A DNA stretch of 64,000 bases from Eledone cirrhosa (lineage: Eukaryota). The notes under the pieces are model-generated. The model saw nothing but the letters and a program-made list of their open reading frames with translations, was not told the DNA's origin and made no database searches. The translations under genes and the position numbers were made by a program. The DNA lies in contig OZ024763.1 in the NCBI GenBank assembly GCA_964016885.1, forward strand, positions 2,852,001 to 2,916,000. The letters run 5' to 3'. This document shows positions 9,274 to 56,214 of this stretch, piece after piece; within the stretch, counting starts at the first letter, position 1; every line of letters starts with the position of its first letter.

Positions 9274-10808
9274 GTTTTACTTGGGGAGGTTCATATTTGT
9301 GTAATAATATTGCCAGAATTAATTAATAACAGAACACACTGTTTGGTTGGTTTTCGCTTCTGTGTCTTTTATATCGGTTAATTTAATTTATTCAGTCCTC
9401 AATGTTGCCATTGACTGACCAACGGTAAAAAATACAGATATAATATAGACACAAACATATATATAGTCTACCAAAGTTCTTTCGTTGCACATCTGCAACA
9501 TCGTCAGAGGTGCTATTGTTTCCTCCTGTTGCATTGTATGTCTACGCCATCTTTATTTAGTGTTTATATATTTATTTATTTGTTTATTTTTTTGTCTTCT
9601 CTGCATTTGCGTGTGTGTATAGTGTTTTGTTTGATGTGTGTTTGGGTGATTGTGTATTGGTTATCTTTACTAGTGTGTGTTTATGTGTTTGTTGTTATTG
9701 TGCTTGTGTATGTATTTATTTATTTCTATTTCTCTTAGGTCAGTGTTGTTTGTTTGGGTGTTGTTATTCCATTCATTTTTTTCTGTTTAGCCTTGGCCTT
9801 CTAAGTTCTATTTCACTGGCCTCTCTGGTTTGCCTATCTGCTGGGTCATTTCTATGTTTAGATATTATTCTAATTTCTATGTTGTCTATGTTACCGTCGT
9901 GTTGTTGTCTGGCATGTTCGTATAGTACTGAACCGTTTTTTCGTCCTTTTAGTTCCCCCCAGTGTTGGTCTATCCTTTCACCTATGCTACGAGCTATCTC
10001 GCCTATGTATGTTGTTGTCATGTTTCTGCAAGTACCCTCTGTACATTTTATGCTATAGATTACGTTTCTAGTTTTACAGTTTATCCGGGGGTTTACTTTA
10101 CATATGATACATTTCCTATTAGTACAGTGGGTTTTCTTAAAAGGGTAGGTTTTGCTGATCAGGGATTTTATGGTGGTTCCTGGCTTTTCTACCACCTTAA
10201 TCTTTAAGTGGGTCTTTCTCAGGGCTTTTCTACACTGGTTAGCTAATTTCCCTCCAGGGGTAGCGTCCACAAATATGACACTCTGGAATCTCTGGTTGTC
10301 GTACCATGAGGTGGCTTTCCCTATCTTATGTCTAGCTCTATCTAAGCTATTCCATGATTTGCTCCTGTATAATGGGCAAATTCCTTTCATGTCCAGTTCT
10401 ATGAGGGTCTTATACTTCTCCGTGGCTCCTTCGTATACTCTGATTCTGTCTCTTTGGTTGTAGCCAGAGAACTGCATGCGGTTGATGAAGTGTTGGATGT
10501 GTCTTTCCATTTCTGTTGGGTCGCACATGCGGGACACGTTCTTCATCACTCGTACCAAGTCTGCGATCAGAATATTAAACTTAGCACTACTGGACATTGC
10601 TGAGTTTTTGAGTATCAGGTATTTGGAGGCCATGGGTTTAGCATAGTGTGAGTGGAGAATTTGGGCTCTCTCGTCTATAGTGTTAATCCAGAGTTCCGTG
10701 TCTAATACAGGTAGTCTATTGTTAGGGTGTTTGGAAGGGTAGTCGATAGTTACAGTTATAATCTGGTGTATGGAATTAGCTATCTGCTGGATGCTTTCCA
10801 TTGTGCTA
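9267..10808 (-). mobile_element. 5'-truncated Penelope-like retroelement (Neptune/Nematis-like): RT C-terminus, Cys linker, GIY-YIG endonuclease, 3' pLTR
   Basis: ITVTIDYPS...LPVLD RT motif; CxxxxCxxC linker; NVIYSIKC...YIGE...ERIDQH...HARQQH and E...P.LN are GIY-YIG hallmarks. Stop at 9773. A further 3'-end copy lies at 49010-49392. Confidence 0.9.
9470..9511 (-). ncRNA. Minimal hammerhead ribozyme motif in the PLE pLTR
   Basis: Minus strand: acct CUGACGA U GUUGCA gaug UGCAAC GAAA GAACUU uggu. Confidence 0.7.
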
Positions 10809-11385
10809 CTGCAGGTGTTGCTGTTCCGGAGGCTGCTTGAATTGTTGTTGTTGTTGTTGTTGCTGTCCAGCCTGGAGCCGGTGGAGCGACACGCAGCCTC
10901 CGATGTGACACCACCCGAACTGCTACCGCTACTGTTGCCATTGTTACTGCTATACTGCCTGTGTGTGTTCTCGACAAAACACCGCTCGTTTTTCAAGAGA
11001 CTTATTCCGACTGGAAACACCGGCTGCGAATCGTACGAAGGTGATGGCTGTTCCTGTTTTATAGTAGCTTCCCTGACAACGCTGTCGTTGGAAGGCGTCG
11101 TGCTTTTACTACGACTGGCTAACTGCGAACAGATGTTGTCTATCTTGCGCATCGACTCCGTCTCAGTGCTCAGCTGCAGGCTGTAAGAAAGGACATTGTC
11201 CACACCGCCGCCACCACCACCACCACTGCCGCCGTTGTCATTTGCCAAGCAGGTGGACACAATCGACAGACTGCTCGTCGAGTTGTCTCCACCAACAAGG
11301 TCGACCCGGTTTTTGTCTCGTGTGTCGTAATGAGCTTCGAAGATGTGTGCATTGAGCGACGTTTGATTGCTAGCTGCATAATTAC
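10808..11385 (-). pseudogene. Inverted partial copy of the zinc-finger exon (about 7265-7857) inside the PLE insertion
   Basis: Reverse complement aligns nearly base-for-base with 7265-7857; 12-bp in-frame deletion (ccaccgcagtat) and scattered substitutions. Confidence 0.93.
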
Positions 11386-11604
11386 GAAAGAACTTTGATA
11401 GACTATATATATGTGTTTGTGTCTATATTGTATCTGTATTTTTGACCGTTGGTCAGTCAATGGTAACATTGAGGACCGAATAAATTAAATTAACCGATAT
11501 AAAAGACACAGAAGCGAAAACCAACCAAACAGTGAGTGTGTTCTGTTATTAATTCTGGCAATATTATTACACAAATATGACCATCCCCAAGTATAACAAT
11601 ATTT
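11384..11604 (+). mobile_element. Inverted partial pLTR of the PLE
   Basis: Reverse complement of 9267-9485; starts at ACGAAAG within the hammerhead core. Confidence 0.9.
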
Positions 11605-12417
11605 GTTTCGACACGATTTCATATCAAAAACCTCGCAAAACTATATATAAATATATACATATATATTTTTAAAATGTGGGTAATTATTTATAAAGTATAT
11701 ATATATAGATATATATGTGTGTGTGTGTTGGCATGTTTGTCTTTATTTTTATATATATATATATATATATAGATCATCATCGTCGTTGTCAATGAAATAT
11801 GATATGATGGTTACATATATCCAAATATAGATAAGTGACCTGACAAAAGGAAGATGCACTCAATACATTTTATGAAGTTTATATCTGTATTAACTGTTTG
11901 CTTCAGGTTGATTGCCATTGGCTGGTTTGGATGAGGCTTGTTCTCATTGGCTGGTTCGGGTCACATGATAAAATAGGTATTTTCATGGCTGACCTTAACA
12001 AAATGAGTAATGTGGGACAACACCACTTCATTGTTTCCTGAAGTGGTCTGCCTTGCTCTGGTTAGAAATTTTGGTTCAATTAAGAATTTCCACAGAAACA
12101 AAGACGACGGTTGTATGCTCCATGATATGTGTAGATTGGGGTGGGAGAAGGTTTGTTGAGAATATTCCAGGTTTATAACAATTCTCTGAGGAATTTCCTT
12201 GTCCTAGAGTCTCCAGATGAAAGGAGACAGAATTTTCTCTGTCCTTGCACCTGAAGGAATTCCTTTGGAGTGAACCTTCTTTTAAAGTTATAAATCCCCG
12301 GCCGTATTGACGGCCCTCGTTGGAGCAATGTATGGCAGGGCCAACTCTAGTCAGATGTCTACCCCATGCTAGCATGGAAAAATAGACATTAAACTGTGAT
12401 GATGATGATATATATAT

Positions 12418-12671
12418 CTAAAGTCTAGTCTGTCTTAAGCCAGAAGTGCTTATCCTGGTTTTATGGGGTGAAGCAACTAAGGGTACAAGACTTCCCCTTG
12501 GACAGGACGCCAGTGAAACCTCCAGCTGCTGCTGGTACTCATTTTCAGCTGAGTATACTGGAACAACGTGGAATGAAGTGTCTTGCTCAAGAACACAACA
12601 CAGTCCAAGAATCGAATCCACAACATTATGATTGTAAGTCCAACATTTTTACCACTAGGCCACATGCCTCC
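12418..12671 (-). mobile_element. tRNA-derived CORE-like SINE (variant)
   Basis: Minus strand ggaggcatgtggcctagtgg (A box), gattcgattc (B box), cttgagcaagacactt core. Similar copy at 27680-27938. Confidence 0.75.
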
Positions 12672-54895: not shown

Positions 54896-54964
54896 ATTTT
54901 ATTATGCGCATTTCAAAAACAAACATCATCATGCAATAATATTTGTGTTTTCATCAGATAAAAC
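54896..54964 (-). ncRNA. Minimal hammerhead within fold-back remnant 54855-55172
   Basis: GUUUUAU CUGAUGA AAAC...GUUUUU GAAA UGCGCAUA AUAAAAU; helix III AUGCGCAU is a perfect palindrome. Confidence 0.8.
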
Positions 54965-55280
54965 AGGAGGACATGATATGAAGGCTAAAAAACACTTGTG
55001 GATAGTGCAGTTTTAAATCAACATATTGAAATGCGCATAATAAAATACATCGAACTCCTTTAACCATCTTTTGATCTTATATATTATGTATACTCCAGTC
55101 CTACAAACTGTAGAGTGCTTCTTATCCGATATCTGCATTGCTTTATTGTACTACAATAAAACTCACCTCCTACATATATATATATATATATATATATATA
55201 TATGAGAGAGCTTCCAACAGTAATGGTTGCATTCTTTAAGGGTATGTCAATATATTTATTTATAAAACTGCTCTATATTA

Positions 55281-55345
55281 TATTTTATCTGATGAAAGCA
55301 CACCATAATTTAACTTGGTGTCCTTGAAATATGTATAATGAAATA
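55281..55345 (+). ncRNA. Minimal hammerhead followed by a tail to about 55475
   Basis: UAUUUUAU CUGAUGA AAGc ACACCA...UGGUGU cCUU GAAA UAUGUAUA AUGAAAUA. Confidence 0.8.
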
Positions 55346-56214
55346 AATATGGTTTTATAAATATAGTTTCCATTTGTTAATATCGTATTTTTACTCCAAT
55401 TATTTGTTGAGTGCTTTATATCAGTTATAAAAATATTTGCTTGTTGTATCCCAACAATTTAAATAGAACTTTTACATATATATATATATATACATATGCG
55501 TATGTATATATATATGCATATGTATATATATATGCATATGTATACATACATATATATATATATGCATATGTATACATACATATATATATATATATATATG
55601 CATATGTATATATATATGCATATGTATACATACATATATATATATATATATATATATGCATATGTATACATACATATATATATATATATATATATATATA
55701 TATATGCGTATGTATACATACATGCGTATACATACATACGTATGCATTTTTTCTTTCATAGCGAGGCTCCCATATGTTTATAGTATATAAACATACTACA
55801 TACGTTTATATACACCCACCCCTATTATGTCTTACGCTGTCTTAGTGTCACTTCCAATACACGCAATCGCACACACACACACACATATATATATACAGGG
55901 TGTCCCAAAATGTATACACACTTTGATTAGAATGCTGCTAAAGTGTGTATACATTTTGGGGGGGACACCCTATATATATATACACACAAGCATGTGTGTG
56001 TGTGTGTGTATATATATATATATATGTGTGTATACGCATATATGTGTGTATACACATATATATATGTATGTATACATATATATATATATATATATGTGTG
56101 TGTGTGTATACATATTTATATATATATATGTGTATGTGTACTTTGAACTTTTCTTAAGTAGGACATGTTTGGATTATTACAGGCGTCGGCTGCTACTGCG
56201 AGTACCCGACAGTC

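Follow-up and report, generated by a model that had tools for sequence, protein, structure and literature searches.

Hammerhead ribozymes of Penelope-like elements (PLEs) and the insertion of Hydra-clade PLEs into TA repeats have already been published (PMC8557442 and PMC4209133). Among the closest described systems is the Hydra clade of PLEs with a C-terminal endonuclease (EN+; Craig et al. 2021, PMC8557442), with which the elements analysed here share RWK-like and DKT motifs, a CxCX5C linker, a CxxC before a conserved E, canonical hammerheads, insertion into (TA)n, an inverted 5′ copy and a tail at one end. According to the same paper, Hydra-clade elements are generally <3 kb long (a tendency rather than a diagnostic trait), have tails of 30–40 bp and are mostly cnidarian, with few families in other phyla, whereas here at least nine families, 3.3 to ~7 kb long and with tails of ~65–135 nt, occur in one octopod. 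Moreover, unlike in the clade as described there, the end of the open reading frame (ORF) and the hammerhead lie 0.7–4.1 kb apart, and one family has an altered (U4A) core.

The ribozymes themselves resemble those in the pseudo-LTRs (pLTRs) of metazoan PLEs (Cervera & de la Pena 2014, PMC4209133) in their type I topology, palindromic helix III, multiplicity of sequence families per genome, predominance of single motifs from truncated PLEs, and opposite-strand pairs 100–700 bp apart. They differ in number (>100,000 exact marks here versus ~2,000–9,000 per genome), in helix III, which is usually an 8–9-nt palindrome here, and in helix II, which reaches 115 nt in family I. Two further PLE systems are informative. 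Family A resembles the Neptune and Nematis clades (CX2-5CxxC linker): its endonuclease is C-terminal, its linker reads CX4CxxC, its GIY-YIG core contains two Cys, and a motif of the DKS/G-like kind is present, but the family A frame differs by a long Asn-rich insert; family F is a relative of A. PAc, a Poseidon element of Anolis (Frangieh et al. 2024, PMC11167929), likewise has two fixed end points on the 3′ side in each family, targets rich in AT and a hammerhead upstream of the start sites, yet it represents a different clade, and its ORF starts inside the hammerhead rather than downstream of the tail, as here. Our literature search found no paper linking hammerheads with octopus PLEs, and the main text of a 2026 Octopus vulgaris repeat paper contains neither 'hammerhead' nor 'ribozyme'; cephalopod Hydra families may be present in the supplements or figures of Craig 2021 and Perreault 2011. 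New here, beside a basic phenomenon already described, are the hammerhead load, the long 3′ regions and tails, and family T.

In the window, a 64-kb stretch of DNA from the octopod Eledone cirrhosa, 13 families account for 22 canonical type I hammerhead motifs, or about one every 2.9 kb, which bears out the original prediction of ~20 modules from at least 10 families at about one per 3 kb. All 22 show CUGANGA, GAAA and a UH site together with helices I–III (at core 48098, GAAA was assigned by eye from the sequence, not by descriptor); the 16 modules initially proposed as examples are all found where they had been placed, with the same three elements. The helix I pairings given for them, five in all, and the four palindromic helix III sequences are present as well. 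The families contribute unequally (A 2, B 1, C 3, D 2, E 1, F 2, G 2, H 2, I 2, J 2, K 1, L 1 and M 1), and a further family, T, with a non-canonical core, had been overlooked. The islands are as follows.

9273-10808, minus strand: family A, 3′ part of a Neptune/Nematis-like PLE, hammerhead 9470-9511
10808-11389, minus strand: 597-bp copy (93.6%) of the adjacent Ikaros-like exon 7262-7857, within the family A insertion
11413-11640, plus strand: inverted 3′ arm of family A, carrying a tail, at the close of the family A insertion
29640-29905, minus strand: family B island, hammerhead 29703-29760
33232-33433: family C inverted island, full hammerhead 33364-33416 on plus, tail on minus
34060-34320, plus strand: family D island, hammerhead 34099-34181
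40001-40169, minus strand: family E, 169-bp island, hammerhead 40047-40102
41523-41779: family D inverted island, hammerhead 41574-41660 on minus
41802-42037: family G inverted island, hammerhead core 41950 on plus, tail on minus
42628-42889, minus strand: family F island, hammerhead 42783-42827
46817-46918, plus strand: family G island, hammerhead 46825-46888
47831-48293: family H inverted island, two hammerheads, cores 47946 (minus) and 48098 (plus)
49052-49391, plus strand: 3′ end of family A, hammerhead 49142-49182, helix I weak
49433-49992: family I inverted island, two hammerheads, cores 49636 (minus) and 49652 (plus), 137-bp tail
50021-50449: family J inverted island, two hammerheads, cores 50129 (minus) and 50252 (plus), 90-bp tail
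50752-51069: family K island, hammerhead 50901-50941 on minus, short inverted arm
53377-53620, minus strand: relative of family F, hammerhead 53501-53541, without TA flank
53846-54020: family C inverted island, two cores, 53975 (minus) and 53984 (plus)
54321-54494, plus strand: family T, hammerhead-like motif, core CAGAAGA at 54339
3095-3225, 9013-9273, 33684-33815 and 40755-40948: additional family T pieces
54857-55173: family L inverted island, hammerhead 54896-54964 on minus, 89-bp tail on plus
55204-55475, plus strand: family M island, hammerhead 55281-55345

The Ikaros-like exon copy is in frame with the family A ORF piece. A separate element without a hammerhead lies at 46650-46805, next to the family G island at 46817-46918.

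Ten of the 13 canonical families (17 of the 22 motifs) are pLTR ends of protein-coding PLEs found elsewhere in the genome, eight of them Hydra-clade (one weakly linked) and two Neptune/Nematis-like; with T included, 11 of 14 families have their own reverse transcriptase (RT)/GIY-YIG frame, nine of them of Hydra type. A pLTR-ORF-pLTR or pLTR-ORF arrangement was found for A, E, F, G, I, J, K, L, M and T, and for C at one locus, with partial-tandem pLTRs around the ORF in K (L103, L104), J (L106), E (L373, L374), L (L378), T (L449), A (L083, L084) and I (L304). Frames are uninterrupted in A (1217 aa; L083, L084) and L (821 aa), and split or partial in E, F, G, I, J, K, M and T. The link of family A to the RT/GIY-YIG ORF at 9267-10808, already recognized in the original prediction, holds: the ORF piece 9776-10807 has a CX4CxxC linker as well as an endonuclease of GIY-YIG type at its C-terminus, and the hammerhead core follows its stop codon by 266 bp. 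Matches to family A (117 scored, out of 36,827 first-look candidates) are 95–100% identical. Family F, with 17,435 pattern matches, ends a Neptune/Nematis-like PLE whose protein is 57–71% identical to that of A (L197, L209).

The Hydra-clade units measure 3.26 kb (T), 3.9 kb (J, L106; L, L376, L378, L380), 4.0–4.2 kb (E, L373, L374), 4.5 kb (K, L103, L104, L107), 4.6 kb (G) and ~7 kb (I); family M belongs to the same clade (L128, L144, L150). Exact matches number 2,616 for E, 2,767 for G and 4,907 for I. In family G, a pLTR is followed by a decayed ORF and, 4.6 kb further, by a second pLTR (L405), and in family I the ORF ends 3.2–4.1 kb upstream of the pLTR (L304, L306-L308). For family C, the link consists of a 64-nt tail match (89%) at a single locus, L068, where the tail runs into the start of a Hydra-type ORF. 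The islands appear ORF-less because the copies are 5′-truncated or inverted and as much as 4 kb can separate them from the ORF end upstream.

Clade assignment relied on motifs, those of RT and EN being identified by eye, rather than on a tree against reference PLEs. Hydra marks (RW[RKT]A or DKT, CxCx5C, and CxxC before E) are found in K, J, I, E, L, T and M, and, in G and C, where the N-terminal part was read, the N-terminal marks. An RWK-like motif and DKT (replacing DKG) occur together in K, J, E, L, T and G, while M has DKT only, C has RWR only, and I has RRVRWRA and DKT; the CxCX5C linker and CxxC are shared by K, J, I, E, L, T and M. Those Hydra-type frames that were read to the C-terminus carry a C-terminal CxH and a GIY-YIG core without the Cys pair (no CCHH). 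Pfam searches with the PLE frames and a PDB search with the A frame gave no significant match; Atlas neighbours of the ORFs carry GIY-YIG/RVT_1, which serves as a lead only. The C-terminal endonuclease and the Hydra-type motifs rule out a Naiad identity of K and J.

As predicted, the islands lie mostly in (TA)n: 16 of 18 border a TA run on at least one side, the exceptions being 9273-11600 and 53377-53620. Among position-ordered copies, the aligned 3′ end has a TA run no more than 5 nt away in 24/30 (E), 28/30 (I) and 18/30 (G; 26/30 within 80 nt), compared with 7% of random positions. Family D departs from this, with 3/30 (28/30 within 80 nt), in an alignment that ended short of the true end. 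Of 58 motifs sampled across the genome, 84% have TA no more than 300 nt downstream, as do 39% of controls. In agreement with Hydra-clade insertion into (TA)n, and with the 5′ truncation, inverted 5′ copies and one-end tails of PLEs, 3′ ends are fixed whereas 5′ ends and inversion points vary among copies, and the tail is present at one end alone in 9 of 10 inverted family I pairs. J was rejected as a fixed-length palindromic unit, its inversion points differing from copy to copy.

Taken together, most islands are very probably 3′ pLTR ends of PLEs, likely generated by truncated target-primed reverse transcription into (TA)n. In this scheme, the endonuclease of the element would cut a TA run on both strands, and reverse transcription would begin at two internal RNA sites, leaving one junction with the tail and the other without it. 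Synthesis would usually halt after 100–500 nt, often at TA-like microhomology, so that what remains is either a single end or two ends inverted head to head, bordered by TA on both sides. Two RT start sites and cutting of both strands are known from PAc (PMC11167929). Since the start sites directly follow the hammerhead, it would be copied into most insertions, its maintenance presumably depending on selection acting on a few active master copies. In these, pLTR-ORF-pLTR transcripts are its probable substrate, cut by a dimer or with the aid of protein, and most genomic copies, inverted ones above all, are probably inert. An 8-nt palindromic helix III likely makes cutting dimer-dependent. In PAc, the hammerhead is protein-assisted and is not needed for insertion in vitro (PMC11167929).

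The main competing explanation goes beyond the original prediction, in which non-autonomous, retrozyme-like elements might be included: it makes most of the islands elements of this kind, spreading on their own via circular RNA and borrowing PLE enzymes. Non-LTR retrozymes (PMC7229834; Li et al. 2026, 10.64898/2026.07.22.740005) likewise consist of short non-coding, pLTR-related units with type I hammerheads, and the genome does contain true tandem hammerhead arrays, with units of 468 bp (L122) and 311 bp (L029). The window modules, in contrast to such retrozymes (PMC7229834), mostly belong to coding elements, 11 of 14 families having an ORF in cis, and are not tandem: none of the 23 cores tested lies within an array of period ≥40, and head-to-tail hammerhead arrays, which in retrozymes have units of 150–450 bp, were seen only at L122 and L029, outside the window. 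Non-autonomy does hold for family H, whose island is the 3′ end of an ORF-less 1,376-bp unit arranged head-to-tail at two unlinked loci; a search of 30 loci plus L441 and L442 for its ORF returned unrelated nested PLE pieces only. The ORF search had the same outcome for family B (5 loci) and family D (60 loci with 1.5-kb flanks, plus L448), both older families (84–92% and 83–89% identity to other copies, respectively). Family E seems at first to support a short unit spreading on its own, given that 11 of 30 position-ordered copies begin within 3 nt of one site and the 40 top copies are identical over 163 bp; however, the hotspot coincides with an internal ATAT, so that microhomology truncation accounts for it, and the top-40 list was selected for full-length identity. 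A purely fixed 165-bp E element is weakened further by 14 of 30 position-ordered copies that reach ≥50 bp further upstream, and by the pLTR-ORF-pLTR arrangement at two loci. Considering also that 5′ ends vary, we regard a mainly retrozyme-like population as improbable and retain truncated PLE insertion as the origin of most islands. The earlier interpretation is therefore partly supported: type I hammerheads of PLE pLTRs with palindromic helix III, inverted insertions and many families stand, and extension of the families led to ORFs for 10 of 13; a mostly ORF-less population does not stand, and non-autonomy holds for H and may hold for B, D and the short form of E.

That palindromic repeat DNA rich in AT has produced the motifs by chance, a view to which the weak, AU-rich helices of several modules, the hairpins that inverted repeats form of themselves and the Rfam result below might lend weight, has a negligible probability and is already refuted for the canonical families by 11 matches versus ~0.1 in shuffles, by 78,926 genome-wide matches to one core pattern versus 0 to its reverse, and by cores that stay constant across families differing in helix II. 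Specifically, two descriptors each gave 11 strict matches in the window, against means of 0.225 (maximum 2) and 0.075 (maximum 1) over 40 dinucleotide shuffles, and bare CUGANGA cores number 46 against 22 in shuffles. These 46 include the 22 modules and 3 decayed relatives (12908, 35412, 38826). A CTGAAGA triple (6094, 6297, 6484) is not a hammerhead, lying inside a 187-bp tandem repeat without downstream GAAA/UH. Weak members are cores 34101, 41656, 41950 and 49146, with helix I of just 2–3 bp, and 29756, with a poor helix II. Between families A and F, 5 of 13 pairs show compensatory changes, and 88.9% of cells are paired versus 22–43% in slid controls, in a test in which two of the five measures were no higher than in shuffles and the split between A and F was counted many times. 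Helix II varies among J/L/M-type families yet folds (z<−2 in 5 of 9 representatives), and the hammerhead is the lowest-energy fold in only one of nine isolated modules. An Rfam scan (E≤10), whose output was swamped by microRNA models matching TA repeats, yielded no hammerhead family among the best 150 of 674 matches. The presence of hammerhead motifs is confirmed, while self-cutting is predicted.

The window is not exceptional because the load is genome-wide: strict matches per 10 kb amount to 1.7 in the window, 1.55 in the rest of the contig, 1.19 in the four largest contigs and 0.68 in others. Exact family marks total 107,502, and sampling suggests that the genome likely contains ~290,000 hammerhead motifs.

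Family T departs from the canonical type I hammerhead in having A instead of U4 (core CAGAAGA), with helices II, III and I of 3, 5 and 5 bp, respectively, and CUU as its predicted site of cleavage. It forms the pLTR end of the 3.26-kb Hydra-clade PLE at L449 and has 15,434 genome matches, with A at position 4 in 100 of the 100 listed; a looser pattern gave 266 non-A matches at this position. No natural U4A hammerhead was found in the literature surveyed; U4A may be listed in Lunse et al. 2017 (PLE hammerhead variants) or in the supplements or figures of Craig 2021 and Perreault 2011. It is conceivable, though doubtful, that T has a functional hammerhead whose core is new among natural ones and whose helix III is of sufficient length for monomer cutting, fixed in a young retrotransposon of >15,000 copies, in the genome with the largest hammerhead load in that literature.

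Both Craig 2021 (PMC8557442) and Frangieh 2024 (PMC11167929) describe the function of hammerheads in PLEs as an open question. In this genome, young high-copy families with different ribozyme designs, namely a palindromic helix III, a hairpin helix III (C, G) and a U4A core (T), occur side by side, and comparing their cleavage would directly test whether cutting is needed for spread. If T cannot cut, it would represent a living-genome case of a PLE amplifying massively without ribozyme cleavage. With an ORF as far as 4 kb away, short islands between TA tracts can be mistaken for retrozymes or unclassified SINEs. The present genome also broadens the Hydra clade, so far a mostly cnidarian group, which here makes up a major repeat class in an octopod.

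All 16 modules named in the original prediction were found in the window, where 22 of the 46 CUGANGA cores belong to repeated type-I hammerhead modules of 13 families (A–M) and three are decayed relatives. Each of two strict descriptors matched 11 times; in 40 block-wise dinucleotide shuffles of the window the averages were 0.225 and 0.075. The proposed TA association also held: 16 of 18 islands, the short module-bearing stretches that are mostly ends of Penelope-like elements (PLEs), adjoin a TA run. Helix I is reduced to 2–3 bp in four window motifs, helix II is poor in the family B motif, and hammerheads were not among the best 150 of 674 matches in an Rfam search of the window. 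A 187-bp tandem repeat (2.3 copies, 6093–6531) carries CTGAAGA in each copy, and was rejected as a hammerhead because these copies are without the second half (GAAA and the UH cleavage site).

Exact-pattern counts across the 3.0-Gb genome sum to 107,502, a figure that leaves out families A, B, C and K; only the J/L/M-type and F-type patterns span both core halves. Reversed patterns, run as controls, gave 0 matches for every counted family.

Exact pattern matches in the genome
J/L/M-type: 78,926
F-type: 17,435
I: 4,907
G: 2,767
E: 2,616
D: 521
H: 330

When 64 samples of 10 kb, placed arbitrarily, were scanned with the strict descriptor, 69 motifs were matched, compared with 0–1 per shuffled set; the sample L122 was excluded because it is a tandem array, with 19 motifs of its own. 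The 53 samples outside the window's contig (C24) give an estimate of ~290,000 motifs genome-wide (95% range 190,000–400,000, stratified bootstrap), and strict density in the window, 1.7 per 10 kb, differs little from the 1.55 over the rest of its contig. Among published hammerhead counts, one study gives ~9,000 for Xenopus tropicalis (PMC4209133), and another gives 126,247 for axolotl and >6,000 for a coral (PMC7229834).

Helix covariation across genomic copies, as predicted, was seen in A/F-type motifs picked by a pattern with most helix positions free. In 16 motifs, aligned out of 32 distinct sequences, 88.9% of cells were paired, compared with 22–43% in slid registers, and five of 13 helix pairs showed changes in both partners. 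Three measures (paired cells, double-change cells, covariation score) exceeded 500 of 500 shuffles and two pair-count measures did not, the A/F split entering these statistics many times. J/L/M-type helix II, left free by the pattern, gave z < -2 in five of nine representatives, one of the nine being without a fold. Among isolated modules, the hammerhead was the lowest-energy fold in one of nine, lying 3–6 kcal/mol above it in the other canonical modules, and helix III palindromes are predicted to form dimer duplexes at -2 to -10 kcal/mol, A/F type excepted. Because the hammerhead is seldom the lowest-energy fold, and inverted islands have long predicted hairpins that would bury the motif, the majority of genomic copies are probably inert.

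The islands had been taken to be mostly ORF-less. Tracing each family through its genome copies contradicts this, as 10 of the 13 families and 17 of the 22 motifs are parts of coding elements (L numbers below denote stretches sampled or fetched from elsewhere in the genome). Family A, with 117 scored matches at 95–100% protein identity from 36,827 first-look candidates, has open frames of 1217 aa with a pseudo-LTR (pLTR) at each side, and family F has a related ORF (57–71%) ending 200–280 bp before the module (L197, L209). Coding elements were likewise seen for K (4.5-kb pLTR-ORF-pLTR plus inverted arm; L103, L104), J (3.9-kb element; L106), E (4.0–4.2-kb elements; L373, L374) and L, which has an open frame of 821 aa in L376 and the pLTR-ORF-pLTR order in L378. 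In family M, a pLTR precedes the ORF start (L128) and an ORF ends ~0.7 kb before the pLTR (L150); in family I, the ORF ends 3.2–4.1 kb before the pLTR in four of eight fetched stretches and starts after it in L304. The family G pLTR is followed by a decayed ORF (L405), and the family C tail continues into an ORF start at L068 only. Families B and D are older (83–92% identity between copies), and following their genome copies revealed no link to a coding element.

The suggestion that non-autonomous elements are present holds for family H. Family H, non-coding for at least 790 bp upstream, forms a 1,376-bp unit, head-to-tail at two unlinked loci, whose longest stop-free stretch in the part translated is 101 codons; by its sequence, it is a non-autonomous PLE-type element. 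The proposed retrozyme-like population was not borne out: retrozymes are defined, in the pertinent passages, as tandem arrays (PMC7229834; 10.64898/2026.07.22.740005), whereas none of 23 window cores tested lies in one. Elsewhere, L122:1-9307 (contig C22) holds a tandem array whose 468-bp units each carry a type-I hammerhead (19 seen, 99–100% alike), with dispersed relatives at 29 other loci and none within the window; this array looks like a non-LTR retrozyme. L029:1-1289 has a tandem 311-bp unit bearing a compact type-I hammerhead.

Clades were assigned from sequence motifs. Families K, J, I, E, L, M, T (a 14th family), G and C carry marks listed for the Hydra clade by Craig et al. (PMC8557442): an RWK-like motif, DKT or both in all nine, and a CxCX5C linker with CxxC before E in the seven other than G and C, in which the N-terminal marks were read. 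The same source describes canonical hammerheads in Hydra elements and insertion of almost all families into (TA)n, which the islands' hammerheads and TA-run flanks match. Four Hydra-type frames share 38–51% identity and had no BLASTP match to A, whose CX4CxxC linker resembles that of Neptune and Nematis in the passages compared. A Pfam search of the PLE frames and a PDB search of the A frame gave nothing significant; Atlas neighbours, a lead only, include GIY-YIG and RVT_1 clusters (0.95–0.97).

Between copies, 3′ ends are fixed and 5′ ends and inversion points vary. In every family examined, copies end at one of two points, termed the arm end and the tail end, separated by ~65–75 nt in G, 89 in L, 90 in J, 98 in K and 134–137 nt in I; the tail is one-sided in nine of 10 inverted pairs of family I. 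The predicted (TA)n flank enrichment was confirmed, with TA within 5 nt of the aligned end in 24/30 copies of E, 28/30 of I and 18/30 of G, versus 7% of random positions, with the caveat that two arms from the same insertion are not independent; D gave 3/30, and 28/30 within 80 nt, its alignment stopping early. In family E, an internal ATAT lies no more than 3 nt from the start of 11 of 30 position-ordered copies. From these patterns we infer a scheme in which a TA run would be cut on both strands, reverse transcription would be primed at two internal RNA sites, and early termination would occur at microhomology. Its model is the insertion of the Anolis Poseidon element, for which the passages concerned report that the protein cuts both strands in vitro, that two start sites bound the tail, and that the protein assists the hammerhead, which insertion does not need (PMC11167929).

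Family T (island at 54321–54494, four further pieces in the window) derives from a Hydra-clade element of 3.26 kb, seen in L449, and represents its pLTR. The hammerhead-like motif of this family runs from helix I through CAGAAGA (U4A), a helix II of 3 bp closed by a U-U pair, GAAA and a 5-bp helix III to a CUU site. With position 4 free, the pattern has 15,434 genome matches, with A in 100 of the 100 listed; a looser pattern with A disallowed matched 266 times across T, G and C, which is what later mutation would be expected to produce. According to Perreault et al. (PMC3088659), changes in the core are rare, and a viroid variant with U4C has low activity; a literature search, which did not extend to Lunse et al. 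2017, found no natural U4A hammerhead. Activity of the predicted hammerhead (-5.5 to -6.0 kcal/mol) is doubtful because competing folds reach -8.8, or -15.1 kcal/mol with longer flanks. Six TA-flanked islands with hairpin arms have no CUGANGA core (29919–30075, 50492–50648; 15600–15703, 41290–41491; 24254–24578, 52226–52424) and probably represent PLE ends whose truncation removed the hammerhead, or further core variants of the T kind.

Other features of the window are as follows.

6820–8385 (+): Ikaros-like C2H2 zinc-finger gene exon, 83% identical over residues 150–521 to an Octopus sinensis protein named Ikaros, which marks the host genome as octopod-like
10808–11389 (-): 597-bp copy of part of this exon, 93.6% identical
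46650–46805: end piece of another high-copy TA-flanked element (2,698 first-look candidates), with no hammerhead within that stretch
13044–13442, 32674–32954, 35567–35907, 47398–47794, 51296–51630: copies of a SINE-like family (300–400 bp, (ATG)n end, many copies, both strands)
19519–21578 (-), 14000–14480 (-), 32200–32646: LINE fragments, with AP endonuclease and RT matches at 20955–21578 and 19930–20751

The exon copy lies inside a family A insertion, between ORF piece and inverted arm, is read together with the PLE piece in a single open frame of 549 codons, and possibly arose while the element inserted, by template switching or by capture of local sequence as filler. Other-clade PLE pieces (Poseidon/Neptune-type RT) lie in flanking sequence at L041:511-1107 and L061:1-768; the genome therefore holds still more PLE families.

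Judged from sequence, the feature is real and of a known kind, namely predicted PLE pseudo-LTR hammerheads in (TA)n, a general picture supported by the relevant part of a review (PMC6765202). What varies from that kind is its scale, the length of the non-coding 3′ regions and tails in the Hydra-clade elements, the presence of one ORF-less derivative, and the U4A core fixed in family T.
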